Sequence record: OR352938.1
DNA length: 64,000 bases
Source of the DNA: Escherichia phage AV108
Reading direction: 5' to 3' (one strand)
Positions within the stretch are counted from its first letter, which is position 1. The number at the start of each line of letters is the position of its first letter. Positions 12,948-21,747 of the stretch are shown in pieces. A program made the position numbers and the translations under genes. Below the pieces are notes generated by a model. The model ran no database searches. It was given only the letters and a program-made list of their open reading frames with translations, and was not told where the DNA came from.

Positions 12948-13206
12948 AAATCGCCCTCAGTTCTTTATAGCCTCCAATGTGCTCGTTGTCAATGAATATC
13001 TGGGGGTATACAAACCGGAGGCTCTTTGAGTTCAGCCTCCCCGCCAGTTCTTCAATCATATCACGGTCGGGAATAATGTCAACCCCGACCTGCTTGAATA
13101 CTGGTTTAAGTGTATACGGAATACCCAGATCATCCAGTAGCTTCATTGCACTAATACAACCATAACAATGATAAGCCTCTTTCGGTATGCCGTATATCTC
13201 GATCAT
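12937..13206 (-). CDS. Glutaredoxin/NrdH-like redoxin (thioredoxin fold)
   Basis: 89 aa, CYGC active-site motif near N-terminus and C-terminal GGY motif typical of small redoxins. Confidence 0.6.
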   Translation of the reverse strand: MIEIYGIPKEAYHCYGCISAMKLLDDLGIPYTLKPVFKQVGVDIIPDRDMIEELAGRLNSKSLRFVYPQIFIDNEHIGGYKELRAIYDY

Positions 13207-13679
13207 TTCTCAGCCTTTAATCTTTCTAGTTCTTCTTCCAGTTCCTTGATCCGTTGGTCACGTTCAAAGTCACGCTGCAACTTAGTGGCAAATACTCGTT
13301 TAAACTGTTTGTAATCATCGATTTTAAACACTTCTTCTTCGCCATAGCGACGCACAGAAACTTCGTAGTTATTGAAGAATTGTTGCATCATTGCTTCGGA
13401 TGATAGTTCTGCTGATACCACTTTAAAATATTGATCTTCGGTCGGTGAAAACCAATTACAAGCATAAAGATAAACCTTTTCATTGTCTGGACACTGGTAA
13501 GCCTTACCATCGATTTCAATCACAGAAACATATTCAGGTATAGTCGATGAATCAATAGCTAAGACTTTAAACTGACGGTCCCCGATAAACTCGGAGATCA
13601 CACGATTCGCATCACTGGTTGCAAAGGCTTTACGCGCTTGTTCGCTTTTCCACTGATAGGTCATACCAACAACAAACAT
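13203..13679 (-). CDS. Paralog family protein (member A)
   Basis: Shares TYxWKSEQA-KAF and IEIDGK..(W/Y)F...ER.YF core with 7 other ORFs in window; C-terminal coiled coil; start at internal ATG with GAGG RBS. Confidence 0.55.
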   Translation of the reverse strand: MFVVGMTYQWKSEQARKAFATSDANRVISEFIGDRQFKVLAIDSSTIPEYVSVIEIDGKAYQCPDNEKVYLYACNWFSPTEDQYFKVVSAELSSEAMMQQFFNNYEVSVRRYGEEEVFKIDDYKQFKRVFATKLQRDFERDQRIKELEEELERLKAEK

Positions 13680-13680
13680 A

Positions 13681-14214
13681 TTACCAACCTCGCTCTTTAC
13701 CAATCAAAAATTCAACTTCACGACGTTTAATATCTTCTTGAAGGTCTTTAATCTTCTGTCGATCTTGCATGATTTCATCCATCTTGTCAAGTGCTGCAAT
13801 GAAATCATCGAAACGTTCAAAGGTTTTACCTTCATTTGCTTCGCTAAATTTAACCATAGTCAGACCGTAACGACTACTAAACAGACGTTTCAACTGTCCA
13901 ACGATCTTAGAATCAGTGGTTATAACTTCCAATTCTTCTACTTCTTGAAAGAATTTTCTATCAGAATCAATAAACCAGCTAGTTCCTTTATGGTTGCTAT
14001 CTTCGGTTGCACTCATTAGAGTATGGTCTTTACCATCAATTTCAATTACATCAATTTGCCCACATGGACTAACCTTTTTAACAGTAAAAGGTCTATAATT
14101 TATTGCTCGTGCAATAACATAATTAAGGTTAGATACGTTTTCAGCATAATGGCAGAAGTCGGTCATAGCATTCGCATCTTTCCAGGTGTAAGTTTTACCA
14201 ATTTCCCATTTCAT
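13681..14214 (-). CDS. Paralog family protein (member B)
   Basis: MKWEIGKTYTWKD N-terminus and IEIDGK core shared with neighbours. Confidence 0.55.
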   Translation of the reverse strand: MKWEIGKTYTWKDANAMTDFCHYAENVSNLNYVIARAINYRPFTVKKVSPCGQIDVIEIDGKDHTLMSATEDSNHKGTSWFIDSDRKFFQEVEELEVITTDSKIVGQLKRLFSSRYGLTMVKFSEANEGKTFERFDDFIAALDKMDEIMQDRQKIKDLQEDIKRREVEFLIGKERGW

Positions 14215-14226
14215 AATATATTCCCC

Positions 14227-14691
14227 TTAACCGATTTTATCAAGTTCGTTTAATGCTTTCTCTGCTTCCTGTATAGCTTGCACCCTTTCCGGCATTTTGT
14301 CAAGAAAATCTTTCAACTCTTCAAAACTGGAGATATGACGCAAGGCGTTAGCACCGATAGCCGCATGTGATTTGCATTCAAAGCGGATTTTATAATTATC
14401 CATCGCCAACTTGAGAAGATCAATTAATTTAGATTCTTCTGGAATAATAATTTCTTCAAATCTGCTACGGTCATGATCCAGAAACCAACAAGATAGACCT
14501 ACATCGGTTGAACTCATATAAGTTCCATCATGAAGATAAACAGACCGCACGTATCCTTTTTTCGCATCAACCGACGCAACTTTAAACGGTAATCGCAGAT
14601 ATTTCAAATAATCAACATCATACCATTTAAAAAATTGGTTTGCATCTTTTACATCTTTCCACGCATAGGTCTTACCAGCTTCCCATTTCAT
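14227..14691 (-). CDS. Paralog family protein (member C)
   Basis: MKWEAGKTYAWKD N-terminus (start at internal ATG); same family. Confidence 0.55.
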   Translation of the reverse strand: MKWEAGKTYAWKDVKDANQFFKWYDVDYLKYLRLPFKVASVDAKKGYVRSVYLHDGTYMSSTDVGLSCWFLDHDRSRFEEIIIPEESKLIDLLKLAMDNYKIRFECKSHAAIGANALRHISSFEELKDFLDKMPERVQAIQEAEKALNELDKIG

Positions 14692-14695
14692 AATA

Positions 14696-15223
14696 TCATC
14701 TCTCATTTTTGATACGTGATTCTAATTGGATCATACGGTCGCGCGTTTGTTTGTATTCTCGGATAGCACCGATCCGGCTAGGCATACCATCCAGTACGCT
14801 CTTAATACCTTCTAGGGTAGTAATTTTGGCAATGCTATTATGTAACCCCATCTTATCGATCAACTGAATGTCGTAGGCTTCCATAAGCAGACCCAAGCGT
14901 TCTAAAGTTAGGTCTTCTTCTTTTTCTTCCGAATCTGGAATCTTAGGTTCAATAGTAACTTCGGTAAAGAAACGACGCTCACCCGACCAAAACCACACGC
15001 CGGAACAACCAATAGGGGATTCTTTTAACGTCATAGAGTCGAAATTACTACCAATAATAGTAATTTCTCTAACATCACCATCATCGTCAAGGTCTTCTAC
15101 CCTAAACGGGCGACCAGCCAACAGGTCAACAATACATCTGTTAATAGACGACGAAAATTTAGTCAGTTCGGCTTTCGACGCTTCACATTCAATCTTGTAA
15201 GTTTTACCAACTTCCCATTCCAT
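14696..15223 (-). CDS. Paralog family protein (member D)
   Basis: MEWEVGKTYK N-terminus; same family. Confidence 0.55.
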   Translation of the reverse strand: MEWEVGKTYKIECEASKAELTKFSSSINRCIVDLLAGRPFRVEDLDDDGDVREITIIGSNFDSMTLKESPIGCSGVWFWSGERRFFTEVTIEPKIPDSEEKEEDLTLERLGLLMEAYDIQLIDKMGLHNSIAKITTLEGIKSVLDGMPSRIGAIREYKQTRDRMIQLESRIKNER

Positions 15224-15233
15224 AATAATCACC

Positions 15234-15737
15234 TCAAATAATTTTCACTGGAATACTATTAACAATCTTGTATTGTACTTGATTGTCAGACCCCCGCCAC
15301 GGCTTCTTCGTTGGCATATCTTTAATATAACGCCCATCGATGAACATGTCAACTGATTCTACAATTTTTCTTTGCTCATCATTCAATTGGTCAAGGGTAT
15401 AACCAGACCATAGCCAAATATCTTTATTTGGCATCCATGATTTTACTTCATCGATGATCCGCTGTACACCCTTTAAATTGCGTTTATACAGTGGATCACC
15501 ACCTAAGAATGTTAGCCCCTGAATAAAATCAGGTCTAAGCAGATCCAGAATCAATCCCATTGTATCATCGGTGAATGGTTCCCCGTTCTTAGGATTGAGT
15601 ATACTGGAATTAAAGCAACCATCACATGCGTGTGAACATCCGGTAACGTAAAGGGAGACTCTCACTCCCTCACCGTTAACCATATCACAATCTTTAATAT
15701 CGGCATAGCGTAGTTTGCCGTATGTATCAGAACTCAT
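15234..15737 (-). CDS. nrdG: Anaerobic ribonucleotide reductase activating protein NrdG (radical SAM)
   Basis: CSHACDGCFN radical-SAM cysteine cluster, GGDP motif; size ~T4 NrdG. Confidence 0.85.
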   Translation of the reverse strand: MSSDTYGKLRYADIKDCDMVNGEGVRVSLYVTGCSHACDGCFNSSILNPKNGEPFTDDTMGLILDLLRPDFIQGLTFLGGDPLYKRNLKGVQRIIDEVKSWMPNKDIWLWSGYTLDQLNDEQRKIVESVDMFIDGRYIKDMPTKKPWRGSDNQVQYKIVNSIPVKII

Positions 15738-15954
15738 ATTCAATTACCCCGAACTCGTTTACAATCTGCGCTTTATAGTAACCACCGCGAGATGCTAATA
15801 GATAAGCTGGGCTTAGGTATTCGTATTCACGGATTTCTACTTGTGCGTTTTCAGTTTCCCAAATCAGTAAAGTCCACATATTTGATTCTCCTGTAAAGTT
15901 GTATCTCGTCTTGATGAATATAGTATAGGGGATCTCGCGATCCCCGTCAAGCAT
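15727..15954 (-). CDS. Hypothetical protein (75 aa)
   Basis: Track ORF between nrdG and nrdD. Confidence 0.4.
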   Translation of the reverse strand: MLDGDREIPYTIFIKTRYNFTGESNMWTLLIWETENAQVEIREYEYLSPAYLLASRGGYYKAQIVNEFGVIEYEF

Positions 15955-16482
15955 TTATTTTAAATTTTTTCGAATGTAGTCAGACCATTCCTTCCCTGTC
16001 AGTTCGGTCCCATTCTGGAAACTGAAATATTCATACGGCATCGAGTCAAGATAAAACAGGATCATACATCGCGCCATATAATACCAATCACGATTAAAGT
16101 AAACTACGTTATCACCAGTACCATCAACCCCTTTATCATAACCATCGCGGGTACGGGCAACCCATTGAATAGTATCATTTTTCTCACGGATAGTAACAGG
16201 TTCCCAATATCCAGCACATCCAGCATGACCACACGAACAAGTAAGGAAATATTGTCCTTTTGCTTTGTTGTCATCCCATTCACGATGGATCGGTTTGATT
16301 TCGTGAAACATTGCCAAACAATCATGATTATGCAACACCGGCTTACCATCAATCAATGCATGGAATGTATACAAACGACCCGTAGACAAATAGCTATCCT
16401 CACGCTCAACCAGTTCAATAGCAATCTTTTTAGCTCGTTCTTTGTGTCGTTGTGCTTTACGCTTACGGTTTAATGATTTCAT
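15955..16482 (-). CDS. Hypothetical protein (~175 aa)
   Basis: Track ORF; start at MKSLNRKRK with GAGGTG RBS; Cys/His-containing. Confidence 0.45.
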   Translation of the reverse strand: MKSLNRKRKAQRHKERAKKIAIELVEREDSYLSTGRLYTFHALIDGKPVLHNHDCLAMFHEIKPIHREWDDNKAKGQYFLTCSCGHAGCAGYWEPVTIREKNDTIQWVARTRDGYDKGVDGTGDNVVYFNRDWYYMARCMILFYLDSMPYEYFSFQNGTELTGKEWSDYIRKNLK

Positions 16483-16499
16483 ATTCACCTCACACATTA

Positions 16500-17039
16500 T
16501 CAAAGGTCGCGATATAGTACATTATGAAAATGAGAACTTGCATTACCAATATTGTAGATAATAAATTCTTCATCCGGCGCTTGCGCTACAAATTGAGTAT
16601 GAGCAACCGCCACAACCTTAAAAATACGATCCGTGATCTTGTGTTTAATTTCTGCCCCTACTTCCATAGGAACATATTCATTTGTTTCTGTTTCAGTCGC
16701 AAAACAGCCATCTTCTTCATAAGCACGAACAAATCTGTCGCAATCAGTACGCTTAACAAATTCAAGAGTATATAATTCTCGTGAATTGTCGGTATAGACC
16801 AATACAGAATTATTATGATAGCGAATCACATACAGGTTATTATCATCGTCAATTACGCAAAAGCTACGGATTCCTTCGCCTTGACTCCAGCAGATATTAA
16901 CCACCGTTCCTCTAATAAAAAAACTTTCCTTTAAATTAAAACTAGTCAATGTGCTAGCGTGCATTTTAACAACAACACCATCGCCAATTTCCAGTTTACG
17001 AATTTTAACTTCTTTGCTCAGTACACAAAACATCATCAT
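16500..17039 (-). CDS. Hypothetical protein (179 aa)
   Basis: Track ORF directly after an early promoter cassette. Confidence 0.5.
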   Translation of the reverse strand: MMMFCVLSKEVKIRKLEIGDGVVVKMHASTLTSFNLKESFFIRGTVVNICWSQGEGIRSFCVIDDDNNLYVIRYHNNSVLVYTDNSRELYTLEFVKRTDCDRFVRAYEEDGCFATETETNEYVPMEVGAEIKHKITDRIFKVVAVAHTQFVAQAPDEEFIIYNIGNASSHFHNVLYRDL

Positions 17040-17068
17040 GTTGTCCTCTCGTTGTTTTCGATGTGAGC

Positions 17069-17096
17069 ATTATACATTAGCTAATCATGTTGTCAA
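17069..17096 (-). promoter_or_regulatory. sigma70-type early promoter (TTGACA-N16-TATAAT)
   Basis: Minus-strand TTGACA aacatgattagctaatg TATAAT then leader CATCGAAAACAACGAGAGGA before ATG. Confidence 0.5.
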
Positions 17097-17139
17097 CACC
17101 CCAAAACGAAAAAGCCGACCCTTTCGGATCGGCTAAAAA

Positions 17140-19002
17140 TTACATGTGCTTAACGCGGTTTACCATCTCGGAGTGTTTCCCGTGGTTAAATGGACGCAGA
17201 TCAACAGATCCAAGATATCCACTAACGCGACGGATAACATTCATCTTTTCCAGATTGTCGTTGCCGCAATCAGGACAAACAAAACCAGACTCGGTCGCTC
17301 TCATTTCCTTATTAGACCCGCATACATGACATACATCAGAAGGAGTATTAACACCGAAGTAGTGCAATTTATCCATTGCATAGTCTACTACAGTTTCAAG
17401 ACCTTTCAGGTTGTTTTTCATGTCTGGGAACTCAACATAAGAGATCATGCCACCGGACGCCAGCCAGTGATAATCTTTCTCAAAGTCAATTTTCTCAAAC
17501 GGTGTAACCTTCCGGTCTACGTCAAGGTGGAATGAGTTGGTGTACCAGTCTTTATCGGTAGCACCCTTAACAATACCAAATTGCTCTCTGTCCAGTCGAT
17601 TAAATCGATAGCAAAGGCTCTCGGCTGGCGTACCGTAAAGACTAAACCCAAGTCCGGTTTCGTCCTTCCATTTTTCAGTATAATGACGCAAGATCTTAAG
17701 AATATGTTTACCGTATCGCTGCGCATCTTCCGAATCAAACGGATGAACATCAAACAGGACGCTCAATACCTCATGTAAACCAATATATCCAAGAGAGATA
17801 CTAGCGCGACCATCTTTCAACACTTCCAAAATTTCATCGTTTTGATGAATACGGAAAAATGCACCTTCGGTATATAGTACAGGAGCAACATTGGCTTTAG
17901 CGCCTTTTAAAGCGTCTACGCGACTCATGAGCGCATCAAAACAAATAGGCATACGATTAGCTAGCTCTTGTTCGAATAGCTCAATTCTGCGCATTACAGA
18001 CGCTTTACCAGCACGACGCGCGGCAATAAGAGCAATACGCGGAAGATTCAGAGTCACAACACCCAAGTTATTACGTCCGTCTAATACTTCTTCGCCTTTC
18101 TCATTATGCCATACACCCAGGAAGCTACGACAACCCATCGGGCTAACCGGAACACTAGATCCAGTGATGCTACGGTTATTCTTCGCAGAGATATAATCAG
18201 GGTAAAGACGCTTACTAGAACATTCCAATGCAAGTTGCTTAATGTCGTAGTTCGGATCTTCCGGTTTAAGGTTTAATCCTTCTTCTAAGAACATCACCAG
18301 CTTAGGAAACACCGGAGTTATACCGTCTTTACCTAAACCTTTAGTTCGAACTTTCAGGATCGCTTTCTGAATCAGTTTTTCTTCCCAGCTAGTACCCATA
18401 CCAAAGGTTAAAGTCACAAAAGGCGTTTGACCGTTGGTGGAGAACAAAGTGTTGATTTCATATTCCAACGCTTGATACCCGTCTAGCGTTTCTTTTTCTG
18501 TCTTCTCTTGTGCATAGAGAGTATCAGCTTTGATTCCGTAGGTTTCGGCATCAGCAAGGTGTTTATGATATGTTTTCTCAACGTATGGCGCTAAAACCTG
18601 ATCGATGTTTGCAATTGTGGTCCCGCCATATTGATGACTTGCCACCTGTGCGATAATTTGAGCGGTTACAGCACAAGCAACGCCGATCGATTTCGGACTT
18701 TCGATTTGTGCGCTACCCAATTTAAAACCATTCTCTAACATGTCTTTGAGATTAACAAGACAGCAGTTAGTAAACGGCATAGCGGGTGCATAATCCATAT
18801 CATGATAATGAATATCACCGTCTACATGCGCTTTATAGATGTGCTCAGGTAACACGGTTTTAGCAATCTGTTTAGACACAGCGCCAGCAATCAGATCTCG
18901 ACGTGTCGGGAATGTTCGCGCGTCTTTGTTCGCGTTCTCTTTACTTACTTCGTTTTCTTTACCCGTTGCGATCTCTGTAATGTCTTTGATTAGTTTTTCC
19001 AT
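17140..19002 (-). CDS. nrdD: Anaerobic ribonucleoside-triphosphate reductase NrdD (glycyl radical enzyme)
   Basis: 620 aa; C-terminal zinc ribbon CHVCGS...CPDCG and glycyl radical motif RRVSGYLG; uninterrupted (no intron). Confidence 0.9.
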   Translation of the reverse strand: MEKLIKDITEIATGKENEVSKENANKDARTFPTRRDLIAGAVSKQIAKTVLPEHIYKAHVDGDIHYHDMDYAPAMPFTNCCLVNLKDMLENGFKLGSAQIESPKSIGVACAVTAQIIAQVASHQYGGTTIANIDQVLAPYVEKTYHKHLADAETYGIKADTLYAQEKTEKETLDGYQALEYEINTLFSTNGQTPFVTLTFGMGTSWEEKLIQKAILKVRTKGLGKDGITPVFPKLVMFLEEGLNLKPEDPNYDIKQLALECSSKRLYPDYISAKNNRSITGSSVPVSPMGCRSFLGVWHNEKGEEVLDGRNNLGVVTLNLPRIALIAARRAGKASVMRRIELFEQELANRMPICFDALMSRVDALKGAKANVAPVLYTEGAFFRIHQNDEILEVLKDGRASISLGYIGLHEVLSVLFDVHPFDSEDAQRYGKHILKILRHYTEKWKDETGLGFSLYGTPAESLCYRFNRLDREQFGIVKGATDKDWYTNSFHLDVDRKVTPFEKIDFEKDYHWLASGGMISYVEFPDMKNNLKGLETVVDYAMDKLHYFGVNTPSDVCHVCGSNKEMRATESGFVCPDCGNDNLEKMNVIRRVSGYLGSVDLRPFNHGKHSEMVNRVKHM

Positions 19003-19014
19003 TGTATCACCTAT

Positions 19015-19037
19015 GAAAAAGCGGGATTTTCTCCCGC
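19015..19037 (-). terminator. Hairpin plus U-run immediately upstream of the nrdD RBS
   Basis: Minus-strand GCGGGAGAAAATCCCGC followed by TTTTT, then AGGTGA RBS and nrdD ATG. Confidence 0.45.
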
Positions 19038-19048
19038 TCGTTGATAGT

Positions 19049-19543
19049 TTATTTTACCAGTTCTGCTAATTCTTTTTCTTTAGCTTCTAGTTCAGCTTTA
19101 AGCTGTTTAATCTCTTGTCGCTTCTTATTAGCGGCTTCTTGCTTACTATTTCGGATAACCTGATCTAGATACAACTCCCAATCCTGAATATTTTTGATAA
19201 TGTATCCGTCAACATTAATTGGTCGGAGATTCAGTACAGCTTCCAGTTTAGTCGCAAAAACTTTAATTGCTGGTGTGAAGTATTCATATTCGTTATCTTC
19301 AAACCAATAACCTAGACTTGCATTATCAATACGAAGACGAAGTTCAAGATCAAGGTCTTTATCTTCGGTGTAAAGATCTTTCACCTGACCCAGCGAACTA
19401 ACAACAACTTTAAAACGAATTTTATCTACACCACCAAACACATCAGTAAGTATATCAGCAATTGAGCTATTAGCGCAAGATTGGTCGCTGAATGCGTCAA
19501 GGTTTTCTTTAGTTACAGTATACCAAACATCTTGTACCCACAT
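19049..19543 (-). CDS. Paralog family protein (member E)
   Basis: IRFKVVVSSLG...YWFEDNEYEYF core plus C-terminal coiled coil. Confidence 0.5.
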   Translation of the reverse strand: MWVQDVWYTVTKENLDAFSDQSCANSSIADILTDVFGGVDKIRFKVVVSSLGQVKDLYTEDKDLDLELRLRIDNASLGYWFEDNEYEYFTPAIKVFATKLEAVLNLRPINVDGYIIKNIQDWELYLDQVIRNSKQEAANKKRQEIKQLKAELEAKEKELAELVK

Positions 19544-19573
19544 AATATAATCCTCTCGTTGTTAAGTGGGAGT

Positions 19574-19601
19574 ATTATAGCATACTCCCTTCGCATGTCA
19601 A
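19574..19601 (-). promoter_or_regulatory. sigma70-type early promoter with palindrome around -10
   Basis: TTGACA tgcgaagggagtatgc TATAAT; GGGAGTAT/ATACTCCC inverted repeat flanks the -10. Confidence 0.5.
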
Positions 19602-20776
19602 GCACTAACTTTTTTCTTTACTGCTTTCACCTTCTGGCGAATTGCTCGAATCTCTTCGATCTCTTTTTCAGTATCTTTAACAATTTCTTTGCGATTCTGA
19701 ATATCTTTATCGAGATTATCATCAAGTTTAGGCAGCATGTCAATCAAGAACTTTTTAAGGTCTTTCAGGTTGCGAATAACAGTACCTTCACCCATTACCG
19801 CCACGCCTACACCATCCGGCAGATCACCAAACAGTTTAACCAGTTCAGACAGATGATCATGATCTTCTAGTGCTTCTTCCGGTTCAGATGGCAGTTCAAC
19901 AAAGTAATAACGTTCATCATTGCTGATCAGGTGATACCAGCAAAGCCCAAAAGATTTAGGAGTATATTCTACACCACCAACTTCAACTGCGTCAACACTT
20001 CCGAAAGAATCTACTTTAGTTACCTTAAATCCATGTTCCAGCGTTTTAATAATTTCAATAACATGACTGGATACGGTTTCAGTATTAAACCAATGAGGCA
20101 AATTATGTGGATTTGGCTTGTATCGTTCGCCTACTTTAAATCTCTGACCACGCTCTTGCATACGGACATATTCAACTCGCGTGATTTCCGCGAAGTATTC
20201 AAATTCGCTACCGTCAAACAAGCAATTCCATTGATCACAAAAACGATCCGCCTTGACGGTTTCACCTTTCGCGGTGATCATGGTAGCTGATCCGTGCAAT
20301 TCTTCTTCAACTAAAAAGCCATATTCGACAAAATCAACAAGTTTCATGGCTTCTTTGTGCTCTGGGTCATGCTCTCCCCAGAATCGCTTAAATTCTTGCA
20401 AACCTTCTGGGGTAAACGAATAACATTTACCTTTTTCAAAGTAAGTCGGCATTGCATCCTCTTTCTTGTTCATCGCTTCGTATGCCTCTTTTGAGATACG
20501 TTTAAAGTATTTGCGCTCATTGTGCATAATCATAGTAGACCAATAATAAACGATATCCTCAGCGGAATAAACTACATCTCCAGCTTCAATAGTAATAACA
20601 TGACCGTGGTCATCTTTTTCTAATACTTTAAAGCCCTTTTCTACGATTTCAGCAACCCGAATATGACCACGGCGCGAAGCATCGGTCAGAATAATTGAAT
20701 AGCGAGAAAAGTCTAGAAACTCATCTTTACCGCCTTCACGGAATGCATAGTAATGACCTTCAAAGAATTTAGCCAT
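19598..20776 (-). CDS. Paralog family protein (member F, three tandem core repeats, 392 aa)
   Basis: Three copies of GF(K/L)V...ER.YF core (GFKVLEKDD.., GFLVEEEL.., GFKVTKVD..) plus C-terminal coiled coil. Confidence 0.55.
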   Translation of the reverse strand: MAKFFEGHYYAFREGGKDEFLDFSRYSIILTDASRRGHIRVAEIVEKGFKVLEKDDHGHVITIEAGDVVYSAEDIVYYWSTMIMHNERKYFKRISKEAYEAMNKKEDAMPTYFEKGKCYSFTPEGLQEFKRFWGEHDPEHKEAMKLVDFVEYGFLVEEELHGSATMITAKGETVKADRFCDQWNCLFDGSEFEYFAEITRVEYVRMQERGQRFKVGERYKPNPHNLPHWFNTETVSSHVIEIIKTLEHGFKVTKVDSFGSVDAVEVGGVEYTPKSFGLCWYHLISNDERYYFVELPSEPEEALEDHDHLSELVKLFGDLPDGVGVAVMGEGTVIRNLKDLKKFLIDMLPKLDDNLDKDIQNRKEIVKDTEKEIEEIRAIRQKVKAVKKKVSA

Positions 20777-20807
20777 AATATAATCCTCTCGTTGTTTAGA
20801 TGGGAGT

Positions 20808-20836
20808 ATCTTACTACTCCCGTTTCATCATGTCAA
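20808..20836 (-). promoter_or_regulatory. sigma70-type early promoter
   Basis: TTGACA-N17-TAAGAT embedded in GGGAGTAGTAAGATACTCCC palindrome. Confidence 0.45.
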
Positions 20837-21399
20837 GCGTTAAATGACTTTTGGATCTCTTTCAGTTCAGCTACTTTATCGGCGCTGAATTTAGCGTAGG
20901 TATCATGTCGAATAATTTCACTTTCAAGAAAGGTTTCCAGCCGAGATCTATTTTCAATAAGGAACTCTTTCAGGTCTTCCGCGTTCTTGATAAAGATTTT
21001 ATTGTCAGTAATGTCATCTTCAATCGCAAAGGAGATAGAGCGAACTTTACCAAACAAGTTAATCAGATCTTCCAGAGATTCTTCTTTCTTAACTGGTTTC
21101 ATTTCTTCAAACTGCTTTTTAGTGATGCGTTTAAAGTATTTGCGCTCGCTTGCATCAATCATGATTGATGCACCCTCATAATCATGAGTTTCTACCAAAT
21201 ACACTTTACCCATAACATTAACCGTAAGAACTTTAAAGCCCCTGTGAAGCACACCATACAGGAACTTGTTATGTTGTGGGTAGCGTTTAACAAATTCCTC
21301 TGCGGACTTAGCATTACGGAAAGTGTAATAACGACCTCGTTCAAAAACAGCATCATTTGAAGACTTAGCCGGATACAATTTATACGTTTTCTGTACCAT
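20833..21399 (-). CDS. Paralog family protein (member G)
   Basis: GFKVLTVNVMGKVYLVETHDYEGASIMIDASERKYFKRITK nearly identical motif to member F; start at MVQKTYKLY with GAGGA RBS. Confidence 0.55.
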   Translation of the reverse strand: MVQKTYKLYPAKSSNDAVFERGRYYTFRNAKSAEEFVKRYPQHNKFLYGVLHRGFKVLTVNVMGKVYLVETHDYEGASIMIDASERKYFKRITKKQFEEMKPVKKEESLEDLINLFGKVRSISFAIEDDITDNKIFIKNAEDLKEFLIENRSRLETFLESEIIRHDTYAKFSADKVAELKEIQKSFNA

Positions 21400-21425
21400 A
21401 ATATAATCCTCTATCATTTCACTAA

Positions 21426-21686
21426 TTAAACAGCACGGAACAGAATGCGCTCACACGGAAGCAGCATAAATTCCCAACGCGGGTCAAAGTCTTTAGCGGT
21501 GTATGTTTTCCCATCAACCGCTATTTCACTTACATAACCAACAGGTGACACTTTAAGAACAGTAAACCCGTTCTTGATGACTTCGTAGGTATCTTTCACC
21601 CCTTCGTATTCATCATCTAAGAAGTCTTTATGTGCTTGCTCAGATTTAAAAACATAGGCCACACCGGATTTAAACATCTTACGCAT
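21426..21686 (-). CDS. Paralog family protein (member H, single core domain)
   Basis: AYVFKSEQAHKDF...IAVDGKTY matches member A N-terminus. Confidence 0.5.
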   Translation of the reverse strand: MRKMFKSGVAYVFKSEQAHKDFLDDEYEGVKDTYEVIKNGFTVLKVSPVGYVSEIAVDGKTYTAKDFDPRWEFMLLPCERILFRAV

Positions 21687-21717: not shown

Positions 21718-21747
21718 ATTTTACTACTCCCATTTCATGTTTGTCAA
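21718..21747 (-). promoter_or_regulatory. sigma70-type early promoter
   Basis: TTGACA-N18-TAAAAT with GGGAGTA...TATTCCC palindrome. Confidence 0.45.

Follow-up and report, generated by a model that had tools for sequence, protein, structure and literature searches.

The 64,000-nucleotide stretch of Escherichia phage AV108 (sequence record OR352938.1) analyzed here, hereafter called the window, carries eight open reading frames (ORFs) in two tandem arrays, A1 to A4 and B1 to B4, all on the minus strand. Profile comparisons show that these predicted genes belong to the T4 GoF (ComC-alpha)/Frd.2/MotB.1 family of early accessory proteins, which in this RB49-like coliphage has undergone an unusually large, lineage-specific local expansion. 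The 8.5-kb region that holds them is 96-98% identical to RB49-like coliphages of the genus Krischvirus, kaaroe, RB49, Phi1, and JSE among them, and is matched by 58 GenBank records. Along the minus strand the order is gene 49, B4-B3-B2-B1, nrdD, three ORFs (RB49 p055, p054, and p053), nrdG, A4-A3-A2-A1, and nrdH. The eight family ORFs correspond to RB49p048-051 and RB49p057-060, and the positions given for them in the original prediction, which was made from the sequence alone, are correct and agree with the RB49 annotation. That prediction had the arrays flanking nrdG-nrdD; the two arrays are indeed so placed, except that nrdG and nrdD are themselves separated by the three unrelated ORFs. Array 1 (A1-A4) is packed behind nrdG with gaps of 1-12 nt, while the gaps of array 2 (B1-B4) measure 26-64 nt and hold sigma-70-type sites.

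Seven of the eight proteins consist of an N-terminal domain (N-domain), a linker, and a variable C-terminal module of alpha/beta type, the last element of which is a long charged helix; B4 is the domain only. In array 1, A1 (13203..13679; 158 amino acids, aa) has one GoF-like N-domain at aa 1-92, followed by a C-terminal part that ends in a charged helix, and it matches phrog_5347 at 1.2e-59 with cross-matches to the goF phrogs 13003 and 2980. A2 (13681..14214; 177 aa) is a single-domain deletion form of a two-domain protein of 274 aa (RB49p049) in which domain 2 is retained. A3 (14227..14691; 154 aa) joins an N-domain at aa 1-84 to a C-terminal module of alpha-beta-beta-alpha-alpha order, and A4 (14696..15223; 175 aa; phrog_5347 at 1.8e-66) is likewise an N-domain with a C-terminal module. 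In array 2 the most divergent member, B1 (19049..19543; 164 aa; phrog_3710 at 3.6e-5), couples an N-domain to a charged C-terminal helix. B2 (19598..20776; 392 aa; phrog_8944 at 2.5e-210), which is RB49 'frd.2', contains three tandem N-domains, placed by hidden Markov model (HMM) at about 20471-20776, 20162-20455, and 19862-20155, and a C-terminal part (19601-19861) that carries a helix of ~55 residues in its AlphaFold2 model. B3 (20833..21399; 188 aa; phrog_8944 at 8.2e-102) has one basic N-domain at aa 17-100 and a C-terminal module. B4 (21426..21686; 86 aa; phrog_16115 at 7e-57) lacks the C-terminal module, and it cross-matches phrogs 5347, 622, and 8944.

Evidence for a single family

The original prediction of an eight-member paralog family in two tandem arrays was borne out both by pairwise links and by leave-one-gene-out HMMs. 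BLASTP and phmmer comparisons link A1-A2-A3-A4, A1 and A2 to B4, and B4-B2-B3, leaving B1 unlinked. Each gene in turn was left out of an N-domain HMM, which was then run against the 618 ORFs of the window that reach 40 aa; among the ORFs outside the model it was always the omitted gene that ranked first, with E values of 1.8e-11 (A1), 1.9e-16 (A2), 1.9e-9 (A3), and 1.7e-9 (A4) in array 1 and 1.3e-3 (B1), 4.3e-25 (B2), 5.3e-10 (B3), and 4.9e-16 (B4) in array 2. The runner-up ORF in these searches was never better than E 0.05. B1, the weakest member, reached E 1.6e-9 against a broader family profile that contained neither B1 nor its ortholog, and it cross-matches phrog_3710. The recurrent next-best ORF of the domain HMMs, at 39384-39701 (minus strand, 106 aa, phrog_16584; E 0.04-1), was rejected as an extra member: its match spans only ~28 profile positions around 'RGFKIKD' and it belongs to a different PHROG, which points to a chance match. 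We hold the family assignment and the domain architecture of the eight ORFs to be close to certain.

The repeated unit is larger than first proposed. Instead of a core of ~50 aa, the paralogs share a complete domain of ~85-95 aa (~90), of which the motif GFKV ... G.V..IE.DG..Y ... WF...ER.YF is the rear half. The reading of the 392-aa B2 as three core copies stands, since three HMM domains are found in it at aa 3-100, 112-204, and 211-301 (E 1e-24 to 1e-27 each, B2 itself being in that profile) and its AlphaFold2 model (predicted local distance difference test, pLDDT, 75) repeats a strand/helix unit three times before a 55-residue terminal helix. Over the domain, identity to the reference copy A2 is as low as 16-30% among the paralogs, and the duplications are therefore old. 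The C-terminal modules are less uniform. Their similarity is significant only within A2/A3/A4 and within B2/B3 (leave-one-out: A3 6.8e-6, B2 1e-3), and C-terminal leave-one-out profiles recovered none of the remaining genes beyond A3 and B2, so that one C-terminal module common to all paralogs is not established by these statistics. Long C-terminal helices are predicted at residues 133-153 of A3 and 337-391 of B2, and it is on these predictions that the term coiled coil rests.

Relation to T4 GoF and predicted fold

A profile made from window proteins only matches T4 GoF over the whole domain at E 9.5e-6 (Z 1e5) and T4 Frd.2 at 0.028, and a broader profile containing no MotB.1 matches T4 MotB.1 at E 1.9e-3. 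Among the PHROGs, A1-A4 fall in phrog_5347, B1 in 15067, B4 in 16115, and B2 and B3 in phrog_8944 'goF mRNA metabolism modulator', a name that B2 and B3 also bear in RefSeq; cross-matches of the window proteins connect them to phrogs 622, 3710, 13003, and 2980, the last two also goF-named. RB49 B2 was named frd.2 in the original RB49 GenBank record (AY343333). Pfam and NCBIfam scans of the eight proteins returned sub-threshold noise only, mostly on the coiled-coil tails. No window protein matches PF03197 'Bacteriophage FRD2 protein' even at E <1, whereas T4 Frd.2, which is related to the window proteins at the level of profiles, gives E 5.2e-39 with this model; for T4 GoF there is no match in Pfam at all. 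The domain that they share therefore has no Pfam model. The earlier statement that function is not recognisable from the sequence has been overtaken, for the domain is the N-terminal domain of T4 GoF (ComC-alpha)/Frd.2, although no biochemical function is yet assigned to the wild-type proteins.

The GoF family itself is already known, having been defined with Frd.2 and MotB.1 as a phage 'LSm-like fold' family (Kim et al., 2025, PMC12152347), and two of the window genes are annotated as goF-like, so that the arrays do not represent a novel type of system. That work makes no mention of RB49, of tandem arrays or paralog expansion, of multi-domain members, or of allelic cassettes (Kim et al., 2025, PMC12152347), and we could not find a prior description of the ninefold expansion in two arrays, of the multi-domain members, or of the domain-level cassette polymorphism. 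The T4 proteins and the window family have much in common: homologous N-terminal domains, by profile match and PHROG cross-matches; the layout of N-domain, linker, and variable C-terminal part; a predicted five-stranded barrel for which FeoA-type SH3 folds are the closest solved structures; confinement to T4-like phages; and early-type promoters, which in the window are promoter-like sites. They differ in number and arrangement. One domain profile was scanned over the window plus the rest of RB49 and over T4 outside its late structural block at 78-112 kb (135 of 169 kb). T4 has three single-domain genes at three scattered loci in that span, whereas RB49-type genomes have nine genes, eight of them in the two arrays around nrdG-nrdD, amounting to 11 domains in the phage of the window and to 12 in RB49. 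The RB49 type is further set apart from T4 by proteins with two or three domains and by the coiled-coil-like C-terminal helix.

The ninth member, Dc2 (RB49p021, 211 aa; NC_005066 11993-12628), adjoins the helicase gene 41 and lies outside the window. It matches the domain HMM at E 1e-7, cross-matches phrog_5347, and has the same layout of a barrel and a charged C-terminal helix. T4 gp61.2 was considered as its counterpart and rejected, for although the map position is shared, the proteins are unrelated. RB49 is without a gene at the T4 goF/motB.1 position (between gene 39 and dexA) and at the T4 frd.2 position (between frd and gene 32). Beyond these phages, the window profile, run by HMMER over a full set of 1.84 billion representative proteins, gave only 53 clusters at E <=1e-3, of which ~10 have two or three domains and a few are long repetitive proteins that are apparently spurious; word-indexed homolog searches returned mostly GoF orthologs or close Krischvirus orthologs. 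The GoF-type family is small and phage-restricted, with relatives in T4-like phages of many hosts.

A structural model of A3 (pLDDT 83.9, from a 52-sequence alignment) has strands at residues 8-11, 36-41, 48-52, 58-60, and 78-81, with helices 14-22 and 27-33 inserted between beta1 and beta2; its C-terminal module comprises helix 86-99, a hairpin at 102-105/117-120, and helices 123-131 and 133-153. From the models we conclude that the predicted fold class of the domain is an SH3-like beta-barrel and that 'LSm-like' is a loose label. Searches of the PDB gave nothing below E 0.1 by fold (Foldseek), the best match being the SPbeta prophage protein YorP, and nothing below E 0.78 by sequence profile. 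Among predicted viral structures the A3 model had 30 Foldseek matches at E <=1e-3. All that are named by organism come from T4-like phages (Escherichia, Proteus, Morganella, Aeromonas, Citrobacter, Pectobacterium, and Edwardsiella), and all are uncharacterised but one 'Dc2' (phage ECD7) and one 'Protease inhibitor' (Citrobacter phage Moon; E 8e-4, template modelling score about 0.4). At least eight of the BFVD matches bear neighbouring UniProt accessions (A0A873W...), a sign that in one further phage the family may be expanded to a similar extent.

The 'Protease inhibitor' name recalls T4 Pin (PinA, Lon inhibitor; phrog_2167; NC_000866 46897-47382), a small early accessory protein encoded, as array 2 is, beside gene 49, with an FKV...IE..DGK-like stretch in register with the window motif. 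This is a lead only. Pin was rejected as a sequence-level relative (HMM E 2.6; hhalign E 0.29, probability 0.2%), and no PHROG is shared. SH3-like small barrels (FeoA; the PcrA/UvrD and SMN Tudor domains; CarD-RID; EF-P domain I; NusG KOW; B. subtilis SPbeta YorP) have no sequence relation to the window domain, which differs from them by the two helices between beta1 and beta2 and has no ligand residues in common with them, and these matches are too weak for any transfer of function. Hfq, Sm, and LSm proteins resemble the domain in having a small, bent, five-stranded antiparallel sheet, and one mutant member of the GoF family alters RNA stability; however, they are recognized by an N-terminal alpha-helix followed by five strands with Sm1/Sm2 motifs, and the window domain does not have this arrangement. 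Models of GoF and MotB.1 dimers and hexamers had interface predicted template modelling (ipTM) scores of <0.3 (Kim et al., 2025, PMC12152347).

In the domain alignment four columns do not vary at all (Y, F, V, and F) and four more hardly vary (G, F, G, and W); most of these are hydrophobic positions of core type. There is no invariant polar or charged column (the ER of ER.YF is common and not invariant), which argues against an enzyme, and among surface columns no basic or aromatic one is conserved. Of the ten N-domains in the window, eight are acidic, with isoelectric points (pI) of 4.1-5.9; A3 is near neutral (7.8) and B3 basic (9.65). By alignment, the x of ERxYF, which is K or R in four of the ten window domains, would correspond to GoF residue G84, where the suppressor G84R lies, and GoF D25 would fall in the helical insert, the stretch that differs most among A3 alleles.

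These two residues come from the genetics of T4. GoF is an early protein of ~20,000 copies per cell that is dispensable and gives monomer and dimer bands (Kim et al., 2025, PMC12152347), and its mutants D25Y and G84R permit T4 growth on rho(nusD) hosts. GoF(D25Y) post-transcriptionally stabilizes a reporter RNA with the gene 41 5' region, independently of Hfq, an effect interpreted as gain-of-function (Kim et al., 2025, PMC12152347). One reading of the arrays is implied by the label 'mRNA metabolism modulator': the paralogs would be RNA-binding, LSm/Hfq-like chaperones or protectors whose barrels shield phage mRNA from host nucleases, different paralogs covering different transcripts. Besides the D25Y effect, T4 growth on rho(nusD) hosts can likewise be restored by Rop, which binds RNA, Hfq is counted among the structural neighbours (Kim et al., 2025, PMC12152347), and the basic B3 domain and the K/R residues at the position of G84 would suit contact with RNA. 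However, in their wild-type forms GoF and MotB.1 scarcely altered the outcome of that reporter assay (Kim et al., 2025, PMC12152347). The mostly acidic N-domains, the helices placed between beta1 and beta2 rather than N-terminally, the want of confident ring or dimer models, and the absence of a conserved basic or aromatic surface column all tell against RNA protection, which we consider unlikely.

The rho(nusD) origin of the goF suppressors, and the first proposal of ComC-alpha as an antitermination factor, would also fit transcription factors that dock onto RNA polymerase or Rho by a Tudor/KOW-like barrel (compare CarD, Mfd, and the UvrD/PcrA C-terminal domains) and modulate early termination or antitermination. 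The effect of D25Y is post-transcriptional, however, and RNA polymerase and Rho are invariant in E. coli, which leaves nine paralogs and the allelic cassettes described below unexplained. We regard such docking as very unlikely.

Exchange, gain, and loss of domains

The window was compared with 13 Krischvirus loci, and ratios of nonsynonymous to synonymous divergence (dN/dS, ω) were calculated by Nei-Gojobori as averages over genes or gene parts. NrdH, NrdG, NrdD, gp49, p044, and p045 have 96-100% protein identity in all 13 loci. Against this background the family genes are unusually variable for the genome and fall into discrete classes by amino acid identity: 97-99% or 68-79% for A1, 95-98% or 61-75% for A2, 98-100% or 65% for A3, 96-100% or 64-66% for A4, and 93-99% or 72% for B1, with B3 at 71-99%. 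In A1-A3 the differences are located in the N-domain (mean identity 0.71-0.77 vs 0.92-0.98 in the C part). Divergent N-domain alleles differ by dN 0.25-0.53 and dS 0.8-2.2 (ω 0.2-0.4). C-part dS is 0.1-0.3 in A2-A4, B1, and most A1 comparisons and 0.67-0.90 in the most divergent A1 allele class, and in the neighbouring genes dS is 0.0-0.16 and ω 0.01-0.1. In A1-A4 and B1, divergence falls to background at about the junction of N-domain and C part. B3 is an exception, with two classes each of N part and C part in various combinations. The divergent N-domain allele of A4 is present in KMB43 and UPWr_E1, and the classes of A1 and A3 occur in all four combinations (window, Whisky, MIZ4, and G5211). 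It is very probable, in our judgment, that the barrel domain is an exchangeable cassette shuffled by recombination among near-identical genomes, whose flanking genes are 97-100% identical in protein while the divergent family classes stand at 61-79%.

The idea of rapid divergence after tandem duplication did not survive this comparison. The duplications are old, at 16-30% identity, and the alleles are deeply diverged and synonymously saturated with ω well below 1; what we see are therefore old alleles moved by recombination, and not recent bursts of amino acid change. Among recently diverged copies, ω in the N-domain is often higher (about 0.2-0.6; A2, B1, B2) than in the C part, where it is <=0.1 in A2 and 0-0.4 in B1 and B2. 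Pressure from interaction with the host, which the original prediction invoked, is a reasonable inference for the arrays.

As read from alignments, whole domains too are shown to have been gained, lost, or replaced within the genus. A2 is a two-domain protein of 274 aa in all but two GenBank records, and in the window it has 177 aa. Aligned with RB49 DNA, the window gene has a clean gap of 291 bp between 38-nt direct repeats that match at 36/38 positions and start both domains of RB49 p049, and unequal recombination therefore explains the loss. The domain left in the window shares 92% identity with domain 2 of RB49 and 52% with its domain 1, while ELT4 and E26 retain domain 1 (92%) and the second slot of UPWr_E1 A2 is occupied by a third domain type, 35-39% identical. 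The A1 ortholog of ELT4 is annotated as two ORFs of 189 and 297 nt (locus L004, 7501-7997) and is apparently disrupted; it is the sole broken member in the 13 loci, all other frames being intact, those of the window included.

Three of the gaps around array 2 have minus-strand promoter-like sites. Between gene 49 and B4 the gap holds a sigma-70-type site at 21718..21747 (TTGACA-18-TAAAAT, 11/12), that between B2 and B1 a site with an extended -10 TG at 19574..19601 (TTGACA-16-TATAAT, 12/12), and that between B3 and B2 a weaker one at 20808..20836 (TTGACA-17-TAAGAT, 10/12); promoters are annotated at the first two places in GEC-3S. Over the whole region such sites are not above shuffles (36 vs 28.5 +/- 6.3) and are consensus matches only, and it is at the level of a consensus match that the array 2 genes are predicted to be early-type. 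A terminator-like hairpin at 17134-17113, just past nrdD, is followed by a perfect site, TTGACA-16-TATAAT, at 17096-17069 (minus strand) before p055. This is the layout of the promoter-early stem-loops (PeSLs) of RB49 and Phi1, which are known early promoters and shuffling points in those phages (Comeau, 2014, PMC4122927).

PeSL-mediated shuffling and hyperplastic regions have been described in T4-like genomes (Arbiol, 2010; Comeau, 2014, PMC4122927). The arrays are similar in that they lie in an accessory zone between core genes, their sister-variable genes are flanked by near-perfect sigma-70 sites, and one such site adjoins a hairpin. Here, however, divergence drops inside the genes (A1-A4, B1) or the change sits at an internal direct repeat, and not only at intergenic PeSLs. 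This setting invites the view that the arrays merely fill a hyperplastic region and are for the most part neutral, duplicates kept by chance and shuffled by recombination without any present function. The T4 homologs are dispensable in the laboratory, the plastic zone with its PeSL-type promoter and stem-loop elements is a known one, ELT4 has its A1 split, and an entire A2 domain can be lost. Yet, apart from A1 of ELT4, none of the eight frames is broken in the window or in any Krischvirus locus that covers it, and purifying selection is indicated by ω values of 0.2-0.4 even where alleles are saturated and of <=0.1 in most C-terminal parts. GoF is, moreover, made at ~20,000 copies per cell, and T4 frd.2 scored as a fitness gene in a CRISPRi-ART screen (the frd.2 amber mutant plates normally). 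We give very little credence to neutral filler as an account of the arrays.

Several observations concern the surrounding genes. The ORFs at 15955-16482 (RB49 p054) and 16500-17039 (p055), both on the minus strand, match phrog_8242 and phrog_14838, have no Pfam match, and are not members of the family. Their alleles across Krischvirus genomes are deeply divergent as well (48-54% and 72-73% aa identity, dS 0.7-1.4), and the whole nrdG-nrdD neighbourhood is therefore an allele-exchange hot spot. In JSE a homing endonuclease gene splits nrdD in two (locus L006, 11744-14366), while nrdD of the window is one ORF of 620 aa. A 103-aa protein (P0179) on a metagenome contig of 816 bp joins the first ~37 residues of NrdD to the C-terminal part of A1, and represents either a natural deletion from nrdD through most of A1 or an assembly chimera. 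At about 50 kb the GC skew of the window changes sign: values of roughly -0.1 to -0.2 give way to values of roughly +0.06 to +0.15, which fits the switch from minus-strand early/middle genes to plus-strand late genes.

Possible roles of the expanded family

As an overall explanation, we lean toward an expansion of the GoF family that evolves by cassettes and supplies accessory binding proteins. The proteins would be early, non-essential, and abundant in the cytoplasm, without an enzymatic site. Their variable barrel may serve as a recognition module and their C-terminal helix may form dimers or higher oligomers, each paralog or allele binding and modulating some host or phage macromolecule tied to RNA metabolism or host takeover. 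This mechanism, in which the barrel would recognize the target and the tail would oligomerize, is put forward tentatively; for the partner, a protein is more likely than general RNA binding.

Several points weigh against this explanation. The sole functional lead in the family, GoF(D25Y), concerns RNA stability and could mean direct RNA binding; one N-domain, that of B3, is strongly basic. Wild-type GoF and MotB.1 did little in the reporter assay, and neither knockout or deletion of T4 goF/motB.1 nor the frd.2 amber mutation had a phenotype in laboratory strains (Kim et al., 2025, PMC12152347). Homology of the C-terminal parts across all paralogs is not established statistically, and oligomerization is only inferred. 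Finally, no ω >1 was found in the gene-average dN/dS comparisons, as might mark positive selection.

A further reading is that the arrays are a diversified arsenal of inhibitors or decoys against polymorphic host factors, in which the barrel would be the specificity cassette and the helix a constant oligomerization handle. By analogy with T4 Dmd, which acts against RnlA/LsoA, the most attractive targets would be RNA-cleaving defence or toxin nucleases. Such an arsenal would explain the mRNA stability seen with mutant GoF, the dispensability in the laboratory, and the mostly acidic barrels, and also nine paralogs, multi-domain proteins, and old allele classes in a nearly clonal genus. We judge this reading quite unlikely.

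GoF/Frd.2/MotB.1 is a conserved early-gene family of T4-like phages that has no wild-type function assigned despite decades of goF genetics. In T4 its three copies are scattered and single-domain, with no knockout phenotype in the laboratory, and T4 therefore gives little experimental leverage. RB49-like phages offer two compact arrays, each of which could be removed in one block, proteins that naturally have one, two, or three domains, and natural allele swaps, confined to the barrel, in near-identical genomes, which together make up a panel for asking what the barrel recognizes. For finding the function of the GoF family, RB49-like phages are thus a better system than T4. Should the barrels turn out to confer specificity against host factors that vary, the family would be added to the counter-defence repertoires of phages; if they do not, the arrays would still be a clean example of domain-level shuffling within phage accessory genes.

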